Shown here: positions 3,952 through 49,985 of the stretch, piece by piece
How positions within the stretch are numbered: the first letter of the stretch is position 1
Layout: each line of letters starts with the position of its first letter
Source of the DNA: Kiritimatiellia bacterium
GTDB lineage: Bacteria > Verrucomicrobiota > Kiritimatiellia > RFP12 > UBA1067
DNA length: 64,000 nucleotides
Assembly (NCBI GenBank): GCA_017427485.1
Contig: JAFRSR010000142.1
Location: forward strand, 1,862 to 65,861
Reading direction: 5' to 3'
Notes under the pieces: generated by a model
Told to the model about the DNA's origin: nothing
The model's input: only the letters and a program-made list of their open reading frames with translations
Databases searched by the model: none
Program-made: the position numbers and the translations under genes

Positions 3952-5974
3952 TTTTCAGAACATATCCGTCCACTACGGGCTCCAGGATGTCCTCACGAAC
4001 GTCAGCTTCCGCGTGAACAAGGGCGAGCGCGTGGGCGTGGTGGGGCCCAACGGCTCAGGAAAGTCCACGCTTTTCAAGATCATCCTCGGCGAGCTCTCCA
4101 CGGACCACGGCGAGCTCGTGATCGAGGAGAGCCCCACGATCGGGTCCACGCGCCAGCACCCCGAGCCGGACACGCCGGACGAGACGCTCCTCGAGTACGC
4201 GATGCGGGGCGTGCCGGGGTTCTGCGAGCTCGAGGCGAAGATGAAGACGCTCGAGGCGCGTCTCGACGCGGGCGAGACGTCCGTGCTGAAGGAGTACGGC
4301 GAGGTGCAGACCGCGTTCGAGCACCTCGGCGGCTACGACCTCGAGACGCGCGTGAAGGTGGCTCTCGGCGGACTCGGCTTCGCCGTGGAGGAGTTCGCGA
4401 AGCCGTTCGCGTCGTTCTCCGGCGGCTGGCGCATGCGCGCCGAGCTTTCGCGCGTGCTCGCGAGCGAGCCGGACCTCCTCCTGCTCGACGAGCCGTCCAA
4501 CTACCTCGACCTCCCCGCCGTCGACTGGCTCCAGCGCTTCCTCAAGCTCTACAGCGGCACGCTCATGCTCATCTCGCACGACCGCTACCTGCTCAAGACG
4601 CTCACGAGCATCATCGTGGAGGTGGATGCCGGCACGTGCACGCGCTACGAAGGCGACCTCGACTGGTACCTGCGCGAGCGCGAGGTGCGCTACCAGCAGC
4701 TCGTCCAGGCGAAGGCGAACCAGGACCACCACCGCGAGCAGCTGCAGCGGTTCGTGGACCGCTTCCGCGCGCAGGCCACGAAGGCCGCGCAGGCGCAGAG
4801 CCGCCAGAAGCTCATCGACAAGATCGACGAGGAGCGCATCGTGCTCCCGAAGCGCTACTCGCGCCGCGGGCGCCTGCGCCTCGCCGAGCCGCCGCCCTCG
4901 GGCATCGAGATGTTCCGCTGCGAGAACATGTTCTTCTCCTACGACGGCGTGAAGAATGTGCTGCACGACGTGACCTTCAACATCGCGCGCGGCGACAAGG
5001 TGGCGGTGATCGGCTACAACGGCCTCGGCAAGACCACGCTCATGCGCATCATTGCGGGGACGCGTCAGCCGACCGCCGGGAAGGCCGTGCTCGGGCACAA
5101 CGTGGTGTGCGGCTACCTCAGCCAGGAGTTCGCCGAGACGATCCCGCCCGACCTCACCGTGTACCGCAACGCGAAGAACGCGATCCCGCCGGGGATGAAC
5201 GAGAAGAACTTCCGCAACCAGCTCGGCGCGTTCGGGTTCGACGAGAACGACGTGGAGAAGCCGGCGGGCGTGCTCTCGGGCGGCGAGAAGATCCGCCTCG
5301 CGTTTCTGCGCCTGTTCCTGCAGTGCCCCAATTTCCTCCTCCTCGACGAGCCCACCACGCACCTCGACCTCGACGGGCGCGCGCTCCTGCAGGACGCGCT
5401 CCAGAAGTACAAGGGGACGATCCTCCTCGTCTCGCACGATATCGAGTTCGTGCGCGCCGTCGCGACGTCCGTGATCGAGATCACGCGCGAGGAGGTGCGA
5501 ACCTACCCGGGCGGCTACGACTACTACTGCGAAAAGAAGGCGCAGCGCGAGGCCGCCGGTAGGGCGGGGCGTCTCGACCCGCCGAACGGTAGGGCGGGGC
5601 GTCTCGACCCGCCGAACGGTAGGGCGGGGCGTCTCGACCCGCCGACTACGGCGCGTCCGGAGGCCGCGCCCTACCAGAATCCAACATCCGCAGCCCCAAA
5701 ACTCACCTCCAAGGAGCTGCGGCAGCAGCGTGCCGCCGAGCGCGCGAAGCTCGCGCCGCGCGTGAAGGAGCTGAAGCGGCGCGTGGAGACGGCCGAGCGT
5801 AAGCTCGACGAGCTGCAGAAGGCGCTCGACACCGCCTCGGAGGAGCTCTTCAACCCGAAGCCCACCACCAACTTCGCCGAGGTCAACCGCCAGGTGCGTA
5901 CGATCCAGTTCGAGATCGACCGCTACACGGCGGACTGGGAGGCCGCCGCGACGGAGCTCGAACAGCTTTCGTGA
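3944..5974 (+). CDS. ABC-F family ATPase (two ABC cassettes, no transmembrane domain)
   Basis: Walker A motifs GPNGSGKST and GYNGLGKTT. ABC signatures LSGGWRMR and LSGGEKIR. Charged inter-domain linker and C-terminal coiled coil. Confidence 0.85.
   Translation: MLDFQNISVHYGLQDVLTNVSFRVNKGERVGVVGPNGSGKSTLFKIILGELSTDHGELVIEESPTIGSTRQHPEPDTPDETLLEYAMRGVPGFCELEAKMKTLEARLDAGETSVLKEYGEVQTAFEHLGGYDLETRVKVALGGLGFAVEEFAKPFASFSGGWRMRAELSRVLASEPDLLLLDEPSNYLDLPAVDWLQRFLKLYSGTLMLISHDRYLLKTLTSIIVEVDAGTCTRYEGDLDWYLREREVRYQQLVQAKANQDHHREQLQRFVDRFRAQATKAAQAQSRQKLIDKIDEERIVLPKRYSRRGRLRLAEPPPSGIEMFRCENMFFSYDGVKNVLHDVTFNIARGDKVAVIGYNGLGKTTLMRIIAGTRQPTAGKAVLGHNVVCGYLSQEFAETIPPDLTVYRNAKNAIPPGMNEKNFRNQLGAFGFDENDVEKPAGVLSGGEKIRLAFLRLFLQCPNFLLLDEPTTHLDLDGRALLQDALQKYKGTILLVSHDIEFVRAVATSVIEITREEVRTYPGGYDYYCEKKAQREAAGRAGRLDPPNGRAGRLDPPNGRAGRLDPPTTARPEAAPYQNPTSAAPKLTSKELRQQRAAERAKLAPRVKELKRRVETAERKLDELQKALDTASEELFNPKPTTNFAEVNRQVRTIQFEIDRYTADWEAAATELEQLS
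5559..5648 (+). repeat. near-perfect 3 x 30-nt tandem repeat inside the ABC-F coding sequence
   Basis: ggtagggcggggcgtctcgacccgccgaac occurs three times (the last unit ends ..gact). Each unit can fold with stem ggcggg/cccgcc. The array encodes GRAGRLDPPN three times. Confidence 0.95.
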
Positions 5975-19955: not shown

Positions 19956-21290
19956 ATGAAGCTCATTATCACCATCGCCGGGCTCGGCGGATTCCTCTAC
20001 GGCGTCGACTTCGGCGTGATTGCCGCGGCCGAGCCGTACATGAAGGCGATGGGCGTCTATACGGACGGCCAGATCAGCCACATCGTCGGCGCGGTGCTGC
20101 TCGGCGGTTTGGTTTCCTCCATCACGGCGGGCTGGTTGAGCAATTTCTTCGGGCGCAAGAAGATGATCGTCGCCTCGGCCGCGATGTTCCTCATCGCGAT
20201 TCCCGTCGTGAGTCTGTCTCTCGGCTCGTATCTAGCCCTTTACGCCGGACGCGTTCTGCAGGGCATGAGCGCCGGATACATGGCCGTCGTGATGCCGATG
20301 TACCTCACCGAGACGCTGCCGCCGGCGATTCGCGGGCGCGGCACGGGCGTGTTCCAGTTCTGTCTCGGACTCGGTCTCGTGGTCGCCGCTGGCGCGGGGT
20401 GCCTCGTCGCGACTTGGTATGGCGCGTCCGACACGGCCGACGCCGCCGGACGCGTCGCCGCCTGGGGCGCGAACTTCTGGTGGACGATGCTGCCCGTCGC
20501 GGTGCTGTTTCTGGGGAGCCTGAAGTTGCCCGAGAGCCCGGTGTGGCTTTCTCGTGGTTCGCGGCTCGCGGTTCGTGATTCGTGTGATGACACGACCCAC
20601 GACCTACGAACCACGAACCACGAACCACGAACCACGCTTCTCCAGCGGCGTTACGTGGTGCCGTTCCTGCTGGCCTGCCTCGTGCTCACGTTCAACAAGA
20701 CGACGGGGATGAGTTCGTTCACGAGCTATCTCGTGACGATCCTCCACAGCGCCGGTTTCGAGGGCATCTTCGCCAACTGGGGACAGCTCGCGGTGAAGCT
20801 CACGAACATGCTCGTGACGCTCGCGGCCGCCGCGCTCGTGGACCGCAAGGGGCGCACGTGGCTCTTGAAAGTGGGTACGGGCGGCATGACGATCGGCCTT
20901 GCGGCCATCGGAGGCGTGTTTCTCGCCATCGAGCGCTTCGGCGTGCATGCGAATAACTTCACGGGGCTTCTCACGCTCTTCTCGTTCTTCTTCATGCAGG
21001 TGTTCTATGCGCTCGGCCCGGGGCTCTGCGTGTGGCTCGTGCTTTCCGAGCTGATGCCGCACAGGATCCGCGCGAACGGCATGGCGATCGCGCTTTTCAT
21101 GAACCAGCTCGTCGCGTGGGGGCTCGCCTCCTGGTTCCGTCCGTGGGTGGCCGCGTGGGGCTGGTCCTCGATGTTCTTCTTCTTCGCCGTGAACGGCGTC
21201 TTGTACTTCATCACCGTGCTCTTCATCCCCGAGACGAAGGGCAAGTCGCTAGATGAGCTGGAGACCCTTTTCGAAAAAACAAAGAACTAG
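19956..21290 (+). CDS. MFS sugar-porter family transporter
   Basis: Multiple hydrophobic segments. Sugar-porter motifs PESPVWL and PETKGKSLDELE. Confidence 0.8.
   Translation: MKLIITIAGLGGFLYGVDFGVIAAAEPYMKAMGVYTDGQISHIVGAVLLGGLVSSITAGWLSNFFGRKKMIVASAAMFLIAIPVVSLSLGSYLALYAGRVLQGMSAGYMAVVMPMYLTETLPPAIRGRGTGVFQFCLGLGLVVAAGAGCLVATWYGASDTADAAGRVAAWGANFWWTMLPVAVLFLGSLKLPESPVWLSRGSRLAVRDSCDDTTHDLRTTNHEPRTTLLQRRYVVPFLLACLVLTFNKTTGMSSFTSYLVTILHSAGFEGIFANWGQLAVKLTNMLVTLAAAALVDRKGRTWLLKVGTGGMTIGLAAIGGVFLAIERFGVHANNFTGLLTLFSFFFMQVFYALGPGLCVWLVLSELMPHRIRANGMAIALFMNQLVAWGLASWFRPWVAAWGWSSMFFFFAVNGVLYFITVLFIPETKGKSLDELETLFEKTKN
20553..20636 (+). repeat. 84-nt inverted array of CGTGGTT-type heptads inside the MFS coding sequence
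   Basis: Five forward units (cgtggtt cgcggct cgcggtt cgtgatt cgtgtga) are followed by seven inverted units (...acgaacc acgaacc acgaacc acgaacc acg). Twelve units of 7 nt give 84 nt, or 28 codons. The array encodes the central loop RGSRLAVRDSCDDTTHDLRTTNHEPRTT. Confidence 0.85.
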
Positions 21291-21306: not shown

Positions 21307-23601
21307 ATGTCGTCTGTCCATCGTCGTCCGTCCTGCATCCTTCGTCTTCTGTCCTCCGTCCTCTGTCCTCTCATCGCCCTAGGAACATTCTCGGCAACCG
21401 CCTTGCAGATCGTGTTGCCGCCCGAATGCGGCGAGAAGGCGCATTGGATCGCCGCGCAGGAGCTGTCGCGCTACTGGCAGGAAATCTGCGGCGAGCGGCT
21501 GGCGATCGTTCCCGCCGCGACGTCGGGCGAGAAGGCGATCCGCTTCGCCGCGTTGCCGCCGACGAAGGATGGGTACGACGCGTACCGGATGAAGTCGGAC
21601 GCGGCCGGACTGGAGCTCGCCGCCGTCAACGGACGCAGCGCGCTCTACGCCGTATACGACTTCCTCGAGCGGCGCGGCGGCTGCCGTTGGTTCTGGGACG
21701 GCGACGTGGTGCCGAAGGGGCCTGCGCCGGACATCACGGGCCTCGACGTGCTTGAACACTCCTCCTTCGAGTTCCGCGGCCTCCGCTACTTCGCGCACCG
21801 CGGCCTCACGCGCTTCCAGGCGGAGCACTGGGGCCTCGAGGACTGGAAGCGCGAGATCAACTGGTGCGTCAAGCGCCGCCTCAACCTCATCATGCCGCGC
21901 ATCGGCATGGACGACGCGTTCCAGAAGGCGTATCCCGATGTCGTTGATTATCCTGACCCTGCCAAGCCCCTCCCCGAGGCGATGCCAGGTTACGACAACC
22001 GCTCGCTCTTCTGGTCCCTCCAGTTCCGCGGCCTCCTGCGCAAGTCCGTGTTTGACTACGCCTTCGACCGCGGCGTGATGGTGCCCGAGGACTTCGGCAC
22101 GATGAGCCACTGGTACTCCCGCACGCCGTACCAGTTCCTCGACACTGTTAAGCCGGACTTCCTGCCGCAGGAGGGCGGGTGCTACGGACACCCCACGGAC
22201 CGCGTGTGGGACGTGCGCGAGGACAAGTGGCTCGACGCCTACTGGAAGCTCACCGAGGCGTCCATCTCCGCCTACGGAAAGCCCGACCTCCTCCACACGA
22301 TCGGCCTCGGCGAGCGCCTCTGCTACAAGGATCGCGCAGCCAACCTGCGCCTGAAGGTGGACGTCCTGAAGCGCCTGATCGCGAAGGCGAAATCCCATTA
22401 CCCCGACAGCCGCATCCTCCTCGCCGGCTGGGACTTCTACCTCACCTGGCACCCGGAAGAGGTCTCCGGGCTTCTCAAGGAGCTCGACCCCAAGTCCACC
22501 ATCATCTGGGACTACGAGGTGGACGCCGTGAGCAACGACCTGCTCGGCAACAAGATCAAGGGCGCGAACAACTTCACGCGCTGGGACGTGATCGGCAAGT
22601 TCCCCTACACGTTCGGACTCTTCATCGCCTACGAGAAGGCGCTCGACGTCCGCGCCAACTACCCGCTCATTCTCGAACGCCAGCGCGCGATCGCCGGCGA
22701 CCCGTTCTGCAAGGGGTACATCTTCTGGCCCGAGTCGTCGCACACGGACATCCTTCTCCTGCGCTACTTCACCGCCAACGCCTGGCGGGCGGACAAGATG
22801 GATGTTGACGCTATCCTGTCCGAGTTCTGCCACGACCGCTACGGCAAGCAGGCGGATGCCTTCGCCGCGATCTGGAAGGACGTGATCCCGCTCGCGCGTC
22901 TGCTCGGCTGGGGCGGCGGATGCATCACGGACGCCGTGGACGGTTGTCCGAAGCGCAACGACCCCGCCGCCTGGAAGAAGTCGTTCCCCGCCGAACTCGC
23001 CTGCACGCCGCGTCTCTTTGAGGCGCTCGCCGCACTTGACTGGGAAGGGGACTTCGTCCGCCGCGACGCCGTGGACCTCGCCCGCACGGCCGCTGACCGT
23101 CTCATTTCCGCCGCGCGCGGCAAGCTGCTTTCCACCTACCACGGTTGGAAGGCAGGCAAGGCGTCCGCCGCAGATGTCAAGAAAACCGCCGACGCCTACG
23201 TCGCCCTCGGGCGCGCCTTTGCCGATCTTCTCGCGCTCCACACGGACTACTCGCTCTACGAATCCTATCTGCGGCTCGACGCGGTGGAGAAGATCCGCAA
23301 CCCGGACTTCGAGCACGTGCTCTACGACAACGCCTCGTGCGGCTACTGCCGTTCGCACCAGTACGAGGTCGCGCGGCATTGGGCCGTGCCCGCAATGACG
23401 GATCTCGCGAACATGCTCGCGGAGCGCGCCGCGGCGGGCGATAAGTCGCCCATTCCGCCACTCAACCAGGACCGCTACCGCGTGCGGAGCCTCCATCGGC
23501 CGCTCGCCGAGATGCGCCCCGCGCTCCCGCGCACGCCGGAGAACTGGCGCCGCGTGCTCGGCGACCTCTCGGCCGCGGCGCGCTTCTTCACGACCCGCTG
23601 A
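21307..23601 (+). CDS. secreted glycoside hydrolase, distantly alpha-N-acetylglucosaminidase (GH89/NAGLU)-like
   Basis: N-terminal signal-like segment. YAVYDFLERRGGCRWFWDGD. WGLEDWKREINWCVKRRLNLIM and ILLAGWDFYLTW resemble the NAGLU TIM-barrel layout. The family call is tentative. Confidence 0.4.
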   Translation: MSSVHRRPSCILRLLSSVLCPLIALGTFSATALQIVLPPECGEKAHWIAAQELSRYWQEICGERLAIVPAATSGEKAIRFAALPPTKDGYDAYRMKSDAAGLELAAVNGRSALYAVYDFLERRGGCRWFWDGDVVPKGPAPDITGLDVLEHSSFEFRGLRYFAHRGLTRFQAEHWGLEDWKREINWCVKRRLNLIMPRIGMDDAFQKAYPDVVDYPDPAKPLPEAMPGYDNRSLFWSLQFRGLLRKSVFDYAFDRGVMVPEDFGTMSHWYSRTPYQFLDTVKPDFLPQEGGCYGHPTDRVWDVREDKWLDAYWKLTEASISAYGKPDLLHTIGLGERLCYKDRAANLRLKVDVLKRLIAKAKSHYPDSRILLAGWDFYLTWHPEEVSGLLKELDPKSTIIWDYEVDAVSNDLLGNKIKGANNFTRWDVIGKFPYTFGLFIAYEKALDVRANYPLILERQRAIAGDPFCKGYIFWPESSHTDILLLRYFTANAWRADKMDVDAILSEFCHDRYGKQADAFAAIWKDVIPLARLLGWGGGCITDAVDGCPKRNDPAAWKKSFPAELACTPRLFEALAALDWEGDFVRRDAVDLARTAADRLISAARGKLLSTYHGWKAGKASAADVKKTADAYVALGRAFADLLALHTDYSLYESYLRLDAVEKIRNPDFEHVLYDNASCGYCRSHQYEVARHWAVPAMTDLANMLAERAAAGDKSPIPPLNQDRYRVRSLHRPLAEMRPALPRTPENWRRVLGDLSAAARFFTTR
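21311..21373 (+). repeat. direct array of nine 7-nt units (CCTCTGT type) encoding the N-terminus of the glycosidase
   Basis: cgtctgt ccatcgt cgtccgt cctgcat ccttcgt cttctgt cctccgt cctctgt cctctca. It is the reverse complement of the GGACAGA units at 38174 and 49848. The 63 nt equal 21 codons. Confidence 0.8.
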
Positions 23602-23604
23602 GGC

Positions 23605-25083
23605 TCACCCGAGGTACGCGCCCTGTTTCTTGAGCGTGTCCACCAGCGTCGCCGCGTCAAGCGCGCGCGGCGCCACGGTGTTCTTCACGCACAGAGCGGC
23701 CGCCGTGCCGGCCGCCTGCCCCATCGCCATCACGGGCGGCATCACGCGCACCGCGCCGGCGGCCTCGCTCGTCGCCGAGAGGCAGCGCCCCGCGACGAGC
23801 AGGCCGTCCACGGCCTTCGGCACGAGGCAGCGGTACGGCACGCCGTACCAGTTGCCGTTCTTCACGGTCACGTACTGGTTGCTCATGGGGCCAAAGCGTC
23901 CGTGGATGTCCACGGAGTTCGCGGCCAGCAGGATCGAATCTGCCGGCACGCGTCCCTCCAGGCAGTCGTCGACCGTGAGACGGTATTCGCCGAAGATGTG
24001 GCGCGACTCGCGCACGCCGACCGTCGAGCCCGTGCAGAGGAGGCGCGCATCGGCGCAGCCCGGCACGTACTTCTTGAAGAAGCGGAAGATCTGGTCCACC
24101 TGCGCGCGTCCGGCGGATTCCGCCGCGCTCCAGCTTTCGGGATCGGTGGAGTTGACGCCCATGATGCGCGAGGTGTTGATGAACCACTCGTCCTCCTTCA
24201 CGCCGCGGAAGAGGCCGATCGAGACGCGCTTGAGGTTCCAGTCGCCGGCGGCGCGCGCCTCCGCGACGCGCCAGTGGAGCGAGCGGTAGTTGACGCCGTC
24301 CTTGCGGTAGAAGTTGTCCTTGTTCGCCTCGATGTCCGCCGTGATGGCCTTGAGGTCGCAGTTGCCGATGCGGAAGAACATCGTCGCGGGCTGCACGCGC
24401 TTGCCCTGCGGGTCGCCGAACTCCGTCGGCACGCCCGCGCGGAACGCGACGTCGCCGTCGCCCGTCGCGTCAATCACCACCTTCGCGCGCACGTCGCGGA
24501 AACCGGCCTTCGTGAAGAGCGTCGCGCCCGCGACGCGCGTCCCGTCCATGAGCGGCTTCACGAAGTCCGCGTGGAAGAGAACCTTCACGCCGGCCTCCGC
24601 GCACATCTCGTCGAGGAGGAGCTTCAGCGCCTCCGGTTCGAATGGCGTGCAGTGGTCGTGTCCGACCTTGATCCAGCTCGTGAACGCCGTGCCGGCGCGG
24701 CAGTCCTTCGGGTGGATCGCGCCGCCGCGCGCGACGAGGCGCTCGACGATCTCGTTGAAGAGACCGCGGATGATCTGCACGGAGCCCGTCTTGTCGTAGC
24801 ACGTCATGAACGGCCCCACGAGGCCGCGCGTCGCCATGCCGCCAAGGCAGTTCCCGCGCTCCACCACCAGCACGCGTGCGCCGTTCCGCGCGGCGGCAAT
24901 GGCGGCGCACGCGCCGGCCGGCCCGCCCCCCGCCACCAGCACGTCAACATCCCCACTGGGAGAACGGACATCTTGTCCGTTGCAACTGGGAGAACGGGCG
25001 TCTTGTCCGTTCCCGGCCGTCGCCGCGCCCACCACGGCGGCCAGCGACGCGCTTTTCAAGAAACCTCTTCTGTTGCATTCCAT
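23605..25083 (-). CDS. Tat-signal FAD-dependent oxidoreductase
   Basis: Twin-arginine motif NRRGFLKSASLAAVVGAATAG. Dinucleotide-binding fold DVLVAGGGPAGACAAIAAARNGARVLVVER. Confidence 0.75.
   Translation of the reverse strand: MECNRRGFLKSASLAAVVGAATAGNGQDARSPSCNGQDVRSPSGDVDVLVAGGGPAGACAAIAAARNGARVLVVERGNCLGGMATRGLVGPFMTCYDKTGSVQIIRGLFNEIVERLVARGGAIHPKDCRAGTAFTSWIKVGHDHCTPFEPEALKLLLDEMCAEAGVKVLFHADFVKPLMDGTRVAGATLFTKAGFRDVRAKVVIDATGDGDVAFRAGVPTEFGDPQGKRVQPATMFFRIGNCDLKAITADIEANKDNFYRKDGVNYRSLHWRVAEARAAGDWNLKRVSIGLFRGVKEDEWFINTSRIMGVNSTDPESWSAAESAGRAQVDQIFRFFKKYVPGCADARLLCTGSTVGVRESRHIFGEYRLTVDDCLEGRVPADSILLAANSVDIHGRFGPMSNQYVTVKNGNWYGVPYRCLVPKAVDGLLVAGRCLSATSEAAGAVRVMPPVMAMGQAAGTAAALCVKNTVAPRALDAATLVDTLKKQGAYLG
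24955..25014. repeat. 2 x 30-nt hairpin elements in frame inside the FAD oxidoreductase gene
   Basis: actgggagaacggacatcttgtccgttgca and actgggagaacgggcgtcttgtccgttccc, each with stem aacgg(a/g)c/gtccgtt. They encode NGQDARSPSC and NGQDVRSPSG between the Tat signal and the Rossmann fold. Confidence 0.9.
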
Positions 25084-31020: not shown

Positions 31021-31103
31021 GACAGGATTACAGGATTTGCAGGATTTACAGGATTCTTCTGATTTCATAATCTTGTTAATCCTGATAATCCTGAAATCCT
31101 GTC
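31021..31103. repeat. inverted array of CAGGATT(T/A) 8-9-nt units between glpF and glpK
   Basis: Left arm gacaggattacaggatttgcaggatttacaggatt (31021-31055). Right arm aatcttgttaatcctgataatcctgaaatcctgtc (31069-31103). The arms are imperfectly complementary. Confidence 0.85.
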
Positions 31104-38155: not shown

Positions 38156-38173
38156 GGAAAGACCGATGAGGAA

Positions 38174-38247
38174 GGACAGAGGACAGATGACAAAGGACAA
38201 AGGATCGCTGTTCCAGCCTTTGTCTGCTGTCCTTTGTCCTTTGTCCT
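38174..38247. repeat. GGACAGA/GGACAAA heptad inverted-repeat hairpin
   Basis: Left arm ggacaga ggacaga tgacaaa ggacaaa gga. Right arm cctttgtctgctgtcctttgtcctttgtcct. It lies directly after the stop at 38155, so it may act as a terminator or intercistronic structure. Confidence 0.85.
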
Positions 38248-49835: not shown

Positions 49836-49985
49836 ATGTTTGGAAAAGGACAGAGGACAGAAGACGGCGGACAAAGGATGGAAGCACAATCCTTTGTCAT
49901 TTCGTCCTTTGTCCTCAAACAAGAGTGTACATCCTGCGCGCCGCGAGAGCGGTGCGCGCCGAAGGAGAAGGAGAGCGGAATATGA
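49836..49985 (+). other. candidate 49-codon upstream ORF ending in an ATGA overlap with the start of the 49982 gene
   Basis: MFGKGQRTEDGGQRMEAQSFVISSFVLKQECTSCAPRERCAPKEKESGI. It spans the heptad hairpin at 49848-49915. Its TGA at 49983-49985 overlaps ATG 49982. Confidence 0.25.
49848..49915. repeat. GGACAGA heptad inverted-repeat hairpin, second copy
   Basis: The left part is ggacagaggacagaagacggcggacaaagga and the right part is tcctttgtcatttcgtcctttgtcct. It belongs to the same family as 38174-38247. Confidence 0.85.

Follow-up and report, generated by a model that had tools for sequence, protein, structure and literature searches.

A heptad-repeat hairpin translated in the central loop of a Kiritimatiellae sugar transporter is probably a gene-less copy of a dispersed repeat

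A hairpin of twelve heptanucleotide units lies in frame in the central cytoplasmic loop of an MFS sugar transporter gene from a rumen-type Kiritimatiellae bacterium. The hairpin, at positions 20553-20636 of the window (the whole 64,000-nt stretch of DNA that was analysed), is probably a gene-less copy of a dispersed repeat that is accommodated in a tolerant loop, translated through and maintained as a frame-kept minisatellite. Arrays of the same unit are dispersed over the genome, enclose a gene for a four-helix-bundle protein and occur in frame in several housekeeping genes, and the orthologous transporter loops are filled with other repeat families in nearly every lineage.

Anatomy of the hairpin and its host gene

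The host gene and the parts of the hairpin are located as follows.

19956-21290, + strand: host MFS sugar-porter gene, 444 amino acids (ORF; Pfam Sugar_tr 1.5e-63, residues 6-439)
20529-20546, + strand: PESPVW motif, with which the conserved N-terminal half ends (comparison of 34 orthologues)
20553-20587, + strand: left arm, five CGTGGTT-like heptads, coding for RGSRLAVRDSCD
20588-20636, + strand: right arm, seven AACCACG-like heptads, coding for (D)DTTHDLRTTNHEPRTT; the arm with a varying unit number
20609-20636, + strand: four perfect AACCACG units, the sole uninterrupted run (exact match to G000:C76:22470-22497)
20637-20657, + strand: LLQRRYV, restart of the conserved C-terminal half

The units of the left arm are, in order, CGTGGTT, CGCGGCT, CGCGGTT, CGTGATT and CGTGTGA, and those of the right arm are TGACACG, ACCCACG, ACCTACG and four times AACCACG. 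The sequence therefore reads as an earlier note on this DNA had described it, with five heptads followed by seven inverted ones, twelve units and 84 nt in all. Tandem Repeats Finder (TRF) scored the right arm at 71, with 6.6 copies and 92% matches. The tract is translated in the context ...PESPVWLS-RGSRLAVRDSCDDTTHDLRTTNHEPRTT-LLQRRYV... and can be read as NHEPRTT repeats, in which three heptads make one seven-residue peptide repeat. All six frames of the CGTGGTT/AACCACG unit are free of stop codons.

The facing arms of five and seven units form a stem of ~31 pairs. The predicted RNA fold has an energy of -45.6 kcal/mol (z -6.2), equalled by none of 200 shuffles, and the DNA fold has a z of -5.1, in agreement with the proposed ability of the 84 nt to fold back on themselves. 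A reading of the hairpin as an intrinsic terminator was rejected, as the stem lies inside the ORF and is followed by CTTCTCCAGCGG, with no U run.

The ORF and its Sugar_tr match bear out the in-frame position of the tract in an MFS sugar transporter. The host protein can be aligned from end to end with GlcP and XylE, and the alignment with the solved structure 4lds places the heptad-coded peptide at the cytoplasmic loop between TM6 and TM7, where it is shorter than the GlcP loop. The assignment of the tract to the central loop after the PESP motif is thus upheld. A structure predicted for the transporter from an alignment of 34 sequences was a poor model (mean pLDDT 46), from which nothing was concluded. 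An independent JGI assembly, P0001, is 97% identical and carries the same loop sequence, excluding an assembly artefact as the origin of the twelve-unit loop.

Turnover of the loop and the allele series

DNA was read for 80 orthologous loci, all of which are in frame. Their loops comprise 68 distinct ones, with strong periodicity of 7, 8, 9 or 14 nt in 24 and hairpins with z < -3 in 26. Residues E193-W197 are invariant in 34 orthologues, and the segment from W197 to L228 is hypervariable throughout. Comparison of the 80 loci showed that the flanks of the loop are nearly invariant, while its repeat family differs in almost every lineage. The repeats filling these loops come from families dispersed in the respective genomes. 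None of the 80 loci presents an empty site; the occupant merely differs. For locus L009, the pattern (TCAAACT)4 had no match in the sister genomes, the unit of this loop being 8 nt and not 7; the 8-nt family was matched as the arms of a gene-bearing cassette in genome G005 (see below). Some repeat occupies exactly this loop in nearly every lineage, which is more than simple tolerance predicts.

Among close relatives the unit number varies, as the earlier note had anticipated, and totals of 9, 12, 15 and 24 units were found, each of them divisible by three. The left arm has five units throughout and is nearly constant among relatives with an AACCACG-type loop. The right arm has four units in L037, seven in the window and in L002, ten in the P0012 type and 19 in L112. 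The observed expansions are 21- or 42-nt blocks rather than single units. No off-frame allele of the AACCACG type was found in about 38 protein clusters and the 80 DNA loci. Five split or truncated alleles are present in all, every one with a loop of non-AACCACG repeats. Two of them, L110 (~19 CTCCAAG units) and L111 (CATCACT units), are split by a frameshift, with the ORF of the C-terminal half called separately, and three truncated proteins (P0151, P0152 and P0159) have tails that look out of frame. The copy number of the long L110 array could be misassembled.

Since frame-breaking unit counts in loops of other heptads split the gene, the twelve-unit tract is frameshift-prone in principle, and this part of the earlier suggestion of a contingency switch stands. 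The switch function itself does not, given that no off-frame AACCACG allele was seen. The proposed test for a bias towards multiples of 21 nt says nothing on function, since only frame-preserving inserts can persist in a gene that still works.

The AACCACG family across the genome

Period-7 arrays lead the non-triplet repeats of the genome, with 243 arrays of at least four copies vs. 23 of period 5 and four of period 10. The window holds several further elements of this kind.

1264-2058, + strand: gene for a four-helix bundle and a zinc ribbon (the PF05635 match at 1438-1566 is weak and, with 24.1 bits, does not reach the cut-off)
905-950 (GCGACAT), 1186-1222 (TGTCGCC) and 2100-2136 (TGTCGCC/T): heptad arrays flanking the 1264-2058 gene
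21311-21373, + strand: in-frame GGACAGA-family heptad array (complement) at the 5' end of the neighbouring NAGLU-like gene
31022-31101, no strand: hairpin of the 9-mer ACAGGATTT, member of a dispersed 84-nt family
38161-38247, no strand: GGACAxA heptad hairpin, intergenic
49847-49915, no strand: GGACAxA heptad hairpin, member of a dispersed 75-nt family

The heptad unit of the transporter is indeed unlike those of the other hairpins in the window; genome-wide, though, AACCACG is the commonest heptad family, with 59 arrays, and forms 46 clusters. A search with (AACCACG)4 allowing up to two mismatches gave 161 genome matches, whereas the reversed control pattern gave none. All nine hairpins of the family share the polarity of the cassette described below, with variable unit numbers and differing central spacers. 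The differing spacers fit local growth as well as copy-and-paste. Shared flanks, target-site duplications and defined element ends were searched for in the 46 clusters, and none was found.

Arrays or hairpins of the family lie in frame in the genes for UvrA, PurL (two), IleS (two), RNase HII, an RhlE-type helicase, KdtA and PMM, and a second MFS gene (PgtP-like) likewise carries an in-frame hairpin of the family in its central loop. These are solely the gene copies confirmed by family models. Genes were predicted with a crude caller written for this analysis (3,671 genes, 83% coding), which extends ORFs to the first start codon, so the 96 arrays scored inside genes are an overcount of the intragenic copies. 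The RNase HII site holds a short array in G012, a longer one in G019, a full hairpin in G000 and no array in G020 and G023.

Two other readings of these hairpins were rejected. The intergenic hairpins are not enriched at gene 3' ends above background, as terminators would be, and the heptad hairpins do not have the conserved REP-like head that a REP/RAYT system would show. The genome also contains seven weak Y1_Tnp matches (~30 bits).

Cassettes with a PF05635 gene between inverted arrays

A PF05635 gene (C240:2140-2451, E 5.5e-36, 125 bits) sits between (CGTGGTT)12 and (AACCACG)4.6. Its family is that of the 23S-rRNA-intervening-sequence protein, a four-helix bundle, which we take to be related to Avd of the diversity-generating retroelements. 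Of the seven PF05635 matches in the genome, six lie within inverted 7-9-nt arrays of the same family (up to 700 nt away), each bracketed match with its own repeat unit, and the seventh is flanked by an array on a single side. Such bracketing was found for 0.025-0.26% of random control segments.

The link between cassettes and arrays was examined in this genome and in four sister genomes, where 13 of 16 PF05635 matches are flanked by 7-9-nt arrays. The cassette arms are CGTGATT/CCACGAA in G012 and GCACCAA in G005 and G043, the latter unit being abundant in the respective genomes. A second G005 cassette has arms of the AGTTTGAA unit, the same as fills the MFS loop of G005 itself. An AACCACG-armed PF05635 gene was not found in G020 and G023 (75% and 89% complete) despite their many AACCACG arrays. 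With these two exceptions, the heptad unit that dominates in a species changes in parallel with the arms of its PF05635 cassettes.

Probable origin and maintenance of the transporter copy

The 84 nt are probably a hairpin-forming, gene-less copy of a dispersed element whose arms are inverted CGTGGTT/AACCACG arrays. As arms of the same family bracket the PF05635 gene, the transporter copy can be likened to a miniature, non-autonomous version of the gene-bearing cassette. The copy sits in the TM6-TM7 cytoplasmic loop, which would be the only long stretch of the transporter where any sequence is tolerated. Translation would run through the copy and yield a hydrophilic, low-complexity linker, with the peptide probably acting as a spacer only. 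Its right arm may win and lose units by slippage in the manner of a minisatellite, and the alleles that persist would be solely those whose total length preserves the frame, as the 9, 12, 15 and 24 units seen suggest; the frame would then be kept by selection and not by mechanism. The copy presumably arrived by insertion, which is inferred and not seen at this locus as no empty orthologous site was found, and the four-helix-bundle protein may have had a part in spreading the arms.

A wider proposal is tentative and rather doubtful. PF05635 cassettes with heptad, octad or nonad arms could form an undescribed class of mobile elements, in which the protein, as a relative of Avd, would recognise its own unit and spread gene-less arm pairs. 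The copies might then be a main source of new linker sequence in the proteins of this Kiritimatiellae genus, and the repeated overwriting of the central loop of MFS transporters would point to a preferred target and not just to a tolerant one.

Slippage of single heptads could instead toggle the transporter as a contingency locus of the NeuO type, with phase variation exploited by the population. NeuO of E. coli K1 works exactly so (PMC3046976), and the tract is likewise a coding-region heptad VNTR, whose own alleles of 9, 12, 15 and 24 units are all divisible by three; the frameshift-split L110 and L111, where the loop consists of other heptads, and the three truncated proteins with seemingly out-of-frame tails point the same way. 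However, a neutral single-unit switch predicts about two thirds of the alleles to be off, whereas no AACCACG-type allele is off frame and all 80 DNA loci are in frame. The tract has just four perfect units, its length changes are blocks of 21 or 42 nt rather than single units, and the long array of L110 was possibly assembled with a wrong copy number. The same arrays are also in frame in UvrA, IleS, PurL and RNase HII, which as essential housekeeping genes are implausible targets of a switch. A programmed contingency switch at the MFS loop is thus not supported, and this reading is improbable. An equally improbable reading takes the hairpin as a selected cis-acting stem-loop of the mRNA or DNA between the two six-helix halves, which would help membrane insertion by pausing translation or provide an RNase III site that tunes the mRNA level, for example. 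It would account for the occupation of the same inter-domain loop in two unrelated MFS genes of the genome and for the folding of 26 of the 68 orthologous loops (z < -3) despite unrelated sequences, and related 23S rRNA stems are RNase III substrates (PMC4990558). However, many orthologous loops are unfolded direct arrays (L058 and L060, dG 0 to -6) or non-repetitive, the one-sided expansion in L112 (five units vs. 19) does not preserve the stem, the same hairpins lie off domain boundaries in UvrA, PurL and IleS, and the intergenic copies have no positional bias towards gene ends.

The tract might also be a purely local microsatellite unrelated to the cassettes, grown by slippage in place from a chance seed, with the inverted arm arising through template switching. 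In many prokaryotes no long simple repeats are commoner than those of heptanucleotides, which have been put down to slippage of the polymerase (Mrazek 2007, cited in PMC4679880); the lack of common flanks or target duplications among the clusters and the stepwise growth of the array among relatives at the RNase HII site are in line with such an origin. Chance seeds, however, predict many units, whereas one unit is found at at least 46 loci. The dominant unit tracks the arms of the resident PF05635 cassettes species by species, the polarity is the same in nine of nine hairpins, and the repeats of the orthologous loops are drawn from families dispersed in the same genome, which together make local growth alone unlikely. 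Healing of double-strand breaks by templated addition of units would also yield inverted arrays of fixed polarity; it was judged less likely, given that a gene lies between the same arms, a better fit to the terminal repeats of an element.

If the reading as a translated copy of a dispersed element is true, selfish repeats with a unit that is not a multiple of three are translated inside essential bacterial genes, and one orthologous loop is wholly swapped for a different repeat family per species, with hardly any change elsewhere in the protein. It would connect three poorly understood matters: the high frequency of heptanucleotide repeats among prokaryotes, the S23p/PF05635 protein of rRNA intervening sequences, whose function is unknown, and the origin of disordered linkers. 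The arrays matter for the quality of metagenome-assembled genomes, since assemblies break at them and chimeric contigs result. As alleles in and out of frame can be counted at the MFS locus, it would make a simple system for tests.

Comparison with known systems

Heptamer arrays have been described in Beggiatoaceae and cyanobacteria (TAACTGA; PMC4679880), and heptanucleotide elements and paired 'class 3' sites, some of them inverted, in Geobacter metallireducens (PMC2700814). These repeats resemble those described here in being species-specific and in having tens to hundreds of sites, most of them between genes and some within. In contrast to the reading given here, they were interpreted as regulator binding sites or regulatory RNAs, and the excerpts of these papers report neither a link to a four-helix-bundle gene nor a systematic in-frame occupation of essential genes.

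The poly-psi VNTR of NeuO (E. coli K1 prophage CUS-3) is likewise an in-gene heptad array in which three units code for a repeat of seven residues, the frame is preserved by multiples of three alone and the copy number varies between strains (PMC3046976). The array of NeuO lies at the 5' end and reaches 93 perfect direct units, switching occurs at high frequency and off alleles are common (PMC3046976), whereas the MFS tract is a degenerate inverted array in mid-gene, with four perfect units and no off allele seen.

The 23S rRNA intervening sequences of Coxiella burnetii and Leptospira resemble the cassettes in having a PF05635-family gene within inverted repeats (PMC4990558). In the ORF-bearing forms, the ORF codes for the S23p four-helix bundle and the inverted terminal repeats form a long stem, and the arms in Coxiella contain tandem GACAGAT heptamers whose number varies between strains (PMC4990558). 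Dispersed gene-less copies such as those found here are not described in the literature on rRNA intervening sequences. Unlike these sequences, the MFS copy is gene-less, lies in a protein-coding gene and is translated, not excised.

In genic position the element resembles the Rickettsia palindromic elements (PMC10969869), also a short palindromic family in frame in many unrelated housekeeping genes. Both add a conserved peptide in tolerant places and have no transposase within the element. The Rickettsia elements are ~100-150 bp long with a fixed consensus, whereas the heptad element consists of 7-nt units in variable number without fixed ends and, unlike them, shares its genome with a gene-bearing relative.

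A translated heptad hairpin in the transporter loop

The tract at 20553-20636 is built of twelve heptads, of which the first five run one way and the other seven are inverted (CGTGGTT CGCGGCT CGCGGTT CGTGATT CGTGTGA TGACACG ACCCACG ACCTACG and four AACCACG). It lies within the following host gene:

19956-21290, + strand, ORF of 444 aa, with the tract in frame between ...PESPVWLS and LLQRRYV...

The ORF encodes a sugar-porter MFS protein (Pfam Sugar_tr, 1.5e-63, residues 6-439), and its alignment with GlcP and XylE, transporters of solved structure, spans the entire protein. RNA folding of 101 nt around the tract gave -45.6 kcal/mol (z -6.2), which none of 200 shuffles equalled, and DNA folding gave a z of -5.1. 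An independent JGI assembly (protein P0001) encodes the identical loop. Close homologues are Kiritimatiellae by their source names. Sequence, ORF, fold and independent assembly bear out the earlier note's description of an inverted twelve-heptad array in frame in the central loop; in the alignment with GlcP and XylE, the heptad-coded peptide stands where these have the TM6-TM7 cytoplasmic loop.

Heptad families and their in-frame copies

Period 7 tops the non-triplet periods in the source genome (G000; 6.30 Mb, 446 contigs, 63.5% G+C; the window lies on contig C76), with 243 arrays of at least four copies in a whole-genome TRF search (period 8, 96; period 5, 23; period 10, 4; period 11, 7). 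The family of the tract, AACCACG/CGTGGTT, is the largest heptad family with 59 arrays; the GGACAAA and GGACAGA types come next. The pattern (AACCACG)4 with at most two mismatches matched 161 times, and its reversed control had no match. This control, GCACCAA x4, turned out by accident to be itself an abundant family in the sister genomes G005 (197 matches), G043 (150), G015 and G007; the dominant heptad units differ species by species in the genus. AACCACG/CGTGGTT units form 46 clusters that hold three or more exact copies. These clusters are mostly unidirectional, with about ten inverted pairs; no flanks common to them were found, and several lie at contig ends. Inverted pairs across the genome comprise 39 heptad, 5 octad and 23 nonad pairs.

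In contrast to the AACCACG hairpins, the 75-nt GGACAxA and 84-nt ACAGGATTT hairpins (including window 49847-49915 and 31022-31101) keep a constant internal order of variant units and share a conserved one-sided flank of about 30 nt (such as TTTCATTGGATTACCTTTC..., whose other strand can be read as ribosome-binding site plus ATG). These hairpins are parts of longer reused modules. Immediately downstream of the AACCACG arrays at C299:15573-15640, C199:19975-20090 and C317:2050-2110 lie extended -10-like boxes (TGGTATAAT, TGGTATACT), followed within a few bases by start codons; thus, some arrays lie in the place expected of a -35 region. Seven weak Y1 transposase-domain matches (~30 bits, IS200/IS605 or RAYT type; contigs C114, C132, C258, C134, C140 and C425) might mobilise the 30-nt REP-like hairpins.

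Intergenic sequence is strongly enriched in heptad arrays: by our own crude gene caller, at 83% coding density, 136 of 286 arrays are intergenic and 54 lie at gene edges. Many are still truly intragenic. The common heptads are free of stop codons in all six frames. In-frame AACCACG arrays or hairpins, confirmed by translation and NCBIfam models, encode peptides of the ...VVRDS... and NHEPRTT types and occur in the following genes, essential ones among them:

UvrA, copies at two sites
PurL (FGAM synthase), two hairpins
IleS, copies at two sites
RNase HII
RhlE-type DEAD-box helicase
Kdo transferase KdtA
Phosphomannomutase
PgtP/GlpT-like MFS transporter, a hairpin, again in the central loop

At the RNase HII site, G000 alone has a full hairpin; G012 has a short array and G019 a longer one, and the sister genomes G020 and G023 have none. 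The PgtP/GlpT-like loop shows repeat turnover among relatives, as the sugar-porter loop does. A methyltransferase-like large ORF (C351:14777-17371) carries three in-frame inserts, namely an AACCACG array, a GGACAGA hairpin and a GGGGACATT 9-mer hairpin.

PF05635 cassettes share the arms

A profile search found seven matches in G000 to PF05635, the four-helix-bundle family of 23S-rRNA-intervening-sequence proteins:

C240:2140-2451, E 5.5e-36, exactly between (CGTGGTT)12 at 2019-2102 and (AACCACG)4.6 at 2489-2520
C424, arms GTTAGGTG/AACCACCT
C62, arms of 8-mers
C241, arms GGACAGA
C76 (in the window), ORF about 1264-2058, arms TGTCGCC/GCGACAT
C103, arms ATGGGGACA/GTCCCCATC
C134, ATAGTGA array on one side only

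Inverted arrays of one family bracketed three of the seven matches within 150 nt and six within 700 nt, compared with 0.025% and 0.26% of random 312-nt segments. In four sister genomes, 7-9-nt arrays flank 13 of 16 matches, so that the link is seen in five genomes. The C240 arms are of the MFS-hairpin family and in the same polarity, and all nine AACCACG-family hairpins in G000 likewise have the CGTGGTT arm first. The C240 cassette (C240:2019-2520), whose PF05635 gene is intact (a 132-aa open frame), is a candidate for an autonomous member of the family. Judged by the flanking sequence, its neighbours look like the start of a DUF58-type gene and the end of a MoxR-type ATPase gene.

The G012 cassette has CGTGATT/CCACGAA arms, and the MFS loop of that genome holds the CGTGGTT/AACCACG hairpin. 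The G005 and G043 cassettes have TTGGTGC/GCACCAA arms, the family abundant in precisely these genomes, and the AGTTTGAA/CTTTCAAA arms of a second G005 cassette are the unit filling G005's own MFS loop (locus L009). No cassette matching the abundant AACCACG arrays of G020 and G023 was found in these two incomplete genomes.

Turnover and length variation at the orthologous loop

Orthologues at 70-92% identity occur in thirteen same-genus genomes. An alignment of 34 sequences has invariant residues nearly throughout and none between W197 and L228. Loop DNA was read at 80 loci from same-genus genomes and JGI metagenomes, and its length is divisible by three in all 80. Among 68 distinct loops, a strong period of 7, 8, 9 or 14 nt is present in 24, and the folding z falls below -3 in 26. 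Repeats of different families replace one another at this site: CGTGGTT, GGACAAA and AGTTTGAA hairpins, CTCCAAG direct arrays, 30-nt hairpin elements and TCCGGA-centred 9-mer loops (66, 93 and 102 nt in three species). Where checked, the loop repeat is a family dispersed in its own genome (CTCCAAG in G002; the ATCCGGAAA 9-mer, in G019 only). At less than about 65% identity, the loops of orthologues are mostly ordinary and lack repeats. Nearly all lineages have this one site occupied, more than tolerance of inserts alone would predict.

A second insert class consists of ~30-nt in-frame hairpin elements encoding QRARRPLSQ or GGTRSCAS...GRAGARPS, of the same family as the window elements 5557-5645 and 24955-25011. 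They fill the MFS loop in L008, L039, P0019, P0038, P0041 and P0136 and also occur in other G000 genes (C267, C199).

Relatives with the CGTGGTT/AACCACG loop have 23 to 58 loop residues, and DNA-level counts are 9 (L037), 12 (the window, L002), 15 (P0012 type) and 24 (L112) units. Growth is confined to the right arm, in blocks of 21 or 42 nt, and the left arm does not change; the tract is thus a variable-number repeat. Searching with the N-terminal half as query, which admits truncated products, found four further AACCACG-type fragments, all in frame, and no frameshifted AACCACG-type allele. Two alleles with other heptads are split, each with a separately called C-terminal-half ORF: P0147/L110 (~19 CTCCAAG units, with a W-to-RRYV distance of 143 nt, remainder 2 modulo three, and an assembled copy number that may be wrong for this long array) and P0131/L111 (CATCACT units, 71 nt, remainder 2). 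The protein sequences of P0151, P0152 and P0159 end in tails resembling a shifted C-terminal part. P0122 and P0124 were rejected as truncated alleles: both come from chimeric contigs in which the repeat joins the MFS N-terminal half to unrelated genes. Other contigs end in heptad arrays (G000 C5:80-233, C32:5-32, C122:1-28 and C377:27-75; metagenome L095, L096 and L100). Heptad repeats degrade metagenome assemblies.

Origin of the tract

Most likely, the tract is a CGTGGTT/AACCACG-family arm pair that lacks the cassette gene and is kept in frame by selection as a translated spacer. Such a pair would lodge in the permissive inter-domain loop and be translated as a hydrophilic spacer, whose length would change by slippage while purifying selection would hold it in frame. 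The MFS copy probably arrived by insertion, and an empty orthologous site was not seen among the loci read. The four-helix-bundle protein may have a role in spreading the arms, and the peptide and stem are probably neutral.

The earlier note's suggestion of a contingency switch has a precedent in NeuO of E. coli K1, whose AAGACTC array often slips by single units and yields active enzyme only if the unit number is divisible by three (PMC3046976). The tract does vary in unit number among relatives, and the split orthologues indicate that the gene can be, and on occasion has been, disrupted by slippage in loops of other heptads. However, off alleles are rare and none was seen for the AACCACG family, only four AACCACG units of the tract are perfect, and the same arrays lie in genes that the cell cannot turn off. 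A cis role for the stem, as a translational pause or by RNase III control, could be suggested by analogy with rRNA intervening sequences, whose stem is under RNase III control (PMC4990558), but is unlikely, given that some orthologues carry direct arrays that cannot fold and that expansion is one-sided.

Comparison with known systems

Related systems are known. The AACCACG hairpins resemble the RPE of Rickettsia, palindromic repeats in frame in housekeeping genes (PMC10969869), and the transporter tract resembles the coding heptanucleotide repeat of NeuO. Dispersed species-specific heptamers like the G000 families are described for Beggiatoaceae, cyanobacteria and Geobacter. The cassettes resemble the Coxiella IVS, a four-helix-bundle ORF between inverted repeats holding strain-variable heptamers (PMC4990558). 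The heptamer of the latter, GACAGAT, is also a unit of the G000 GGACAGA/GACAAAG family (GACAGATGACAAAGGACAAAG, window 38161-38204), which may be a coincidence or a widely shared unit type. One combination was not found in the literature searched: gene-less inverted 7-9-nt arrays, derived from PF05635 cassettes, are translated in many essential genes and replace one another at an orthologous transporter loop.
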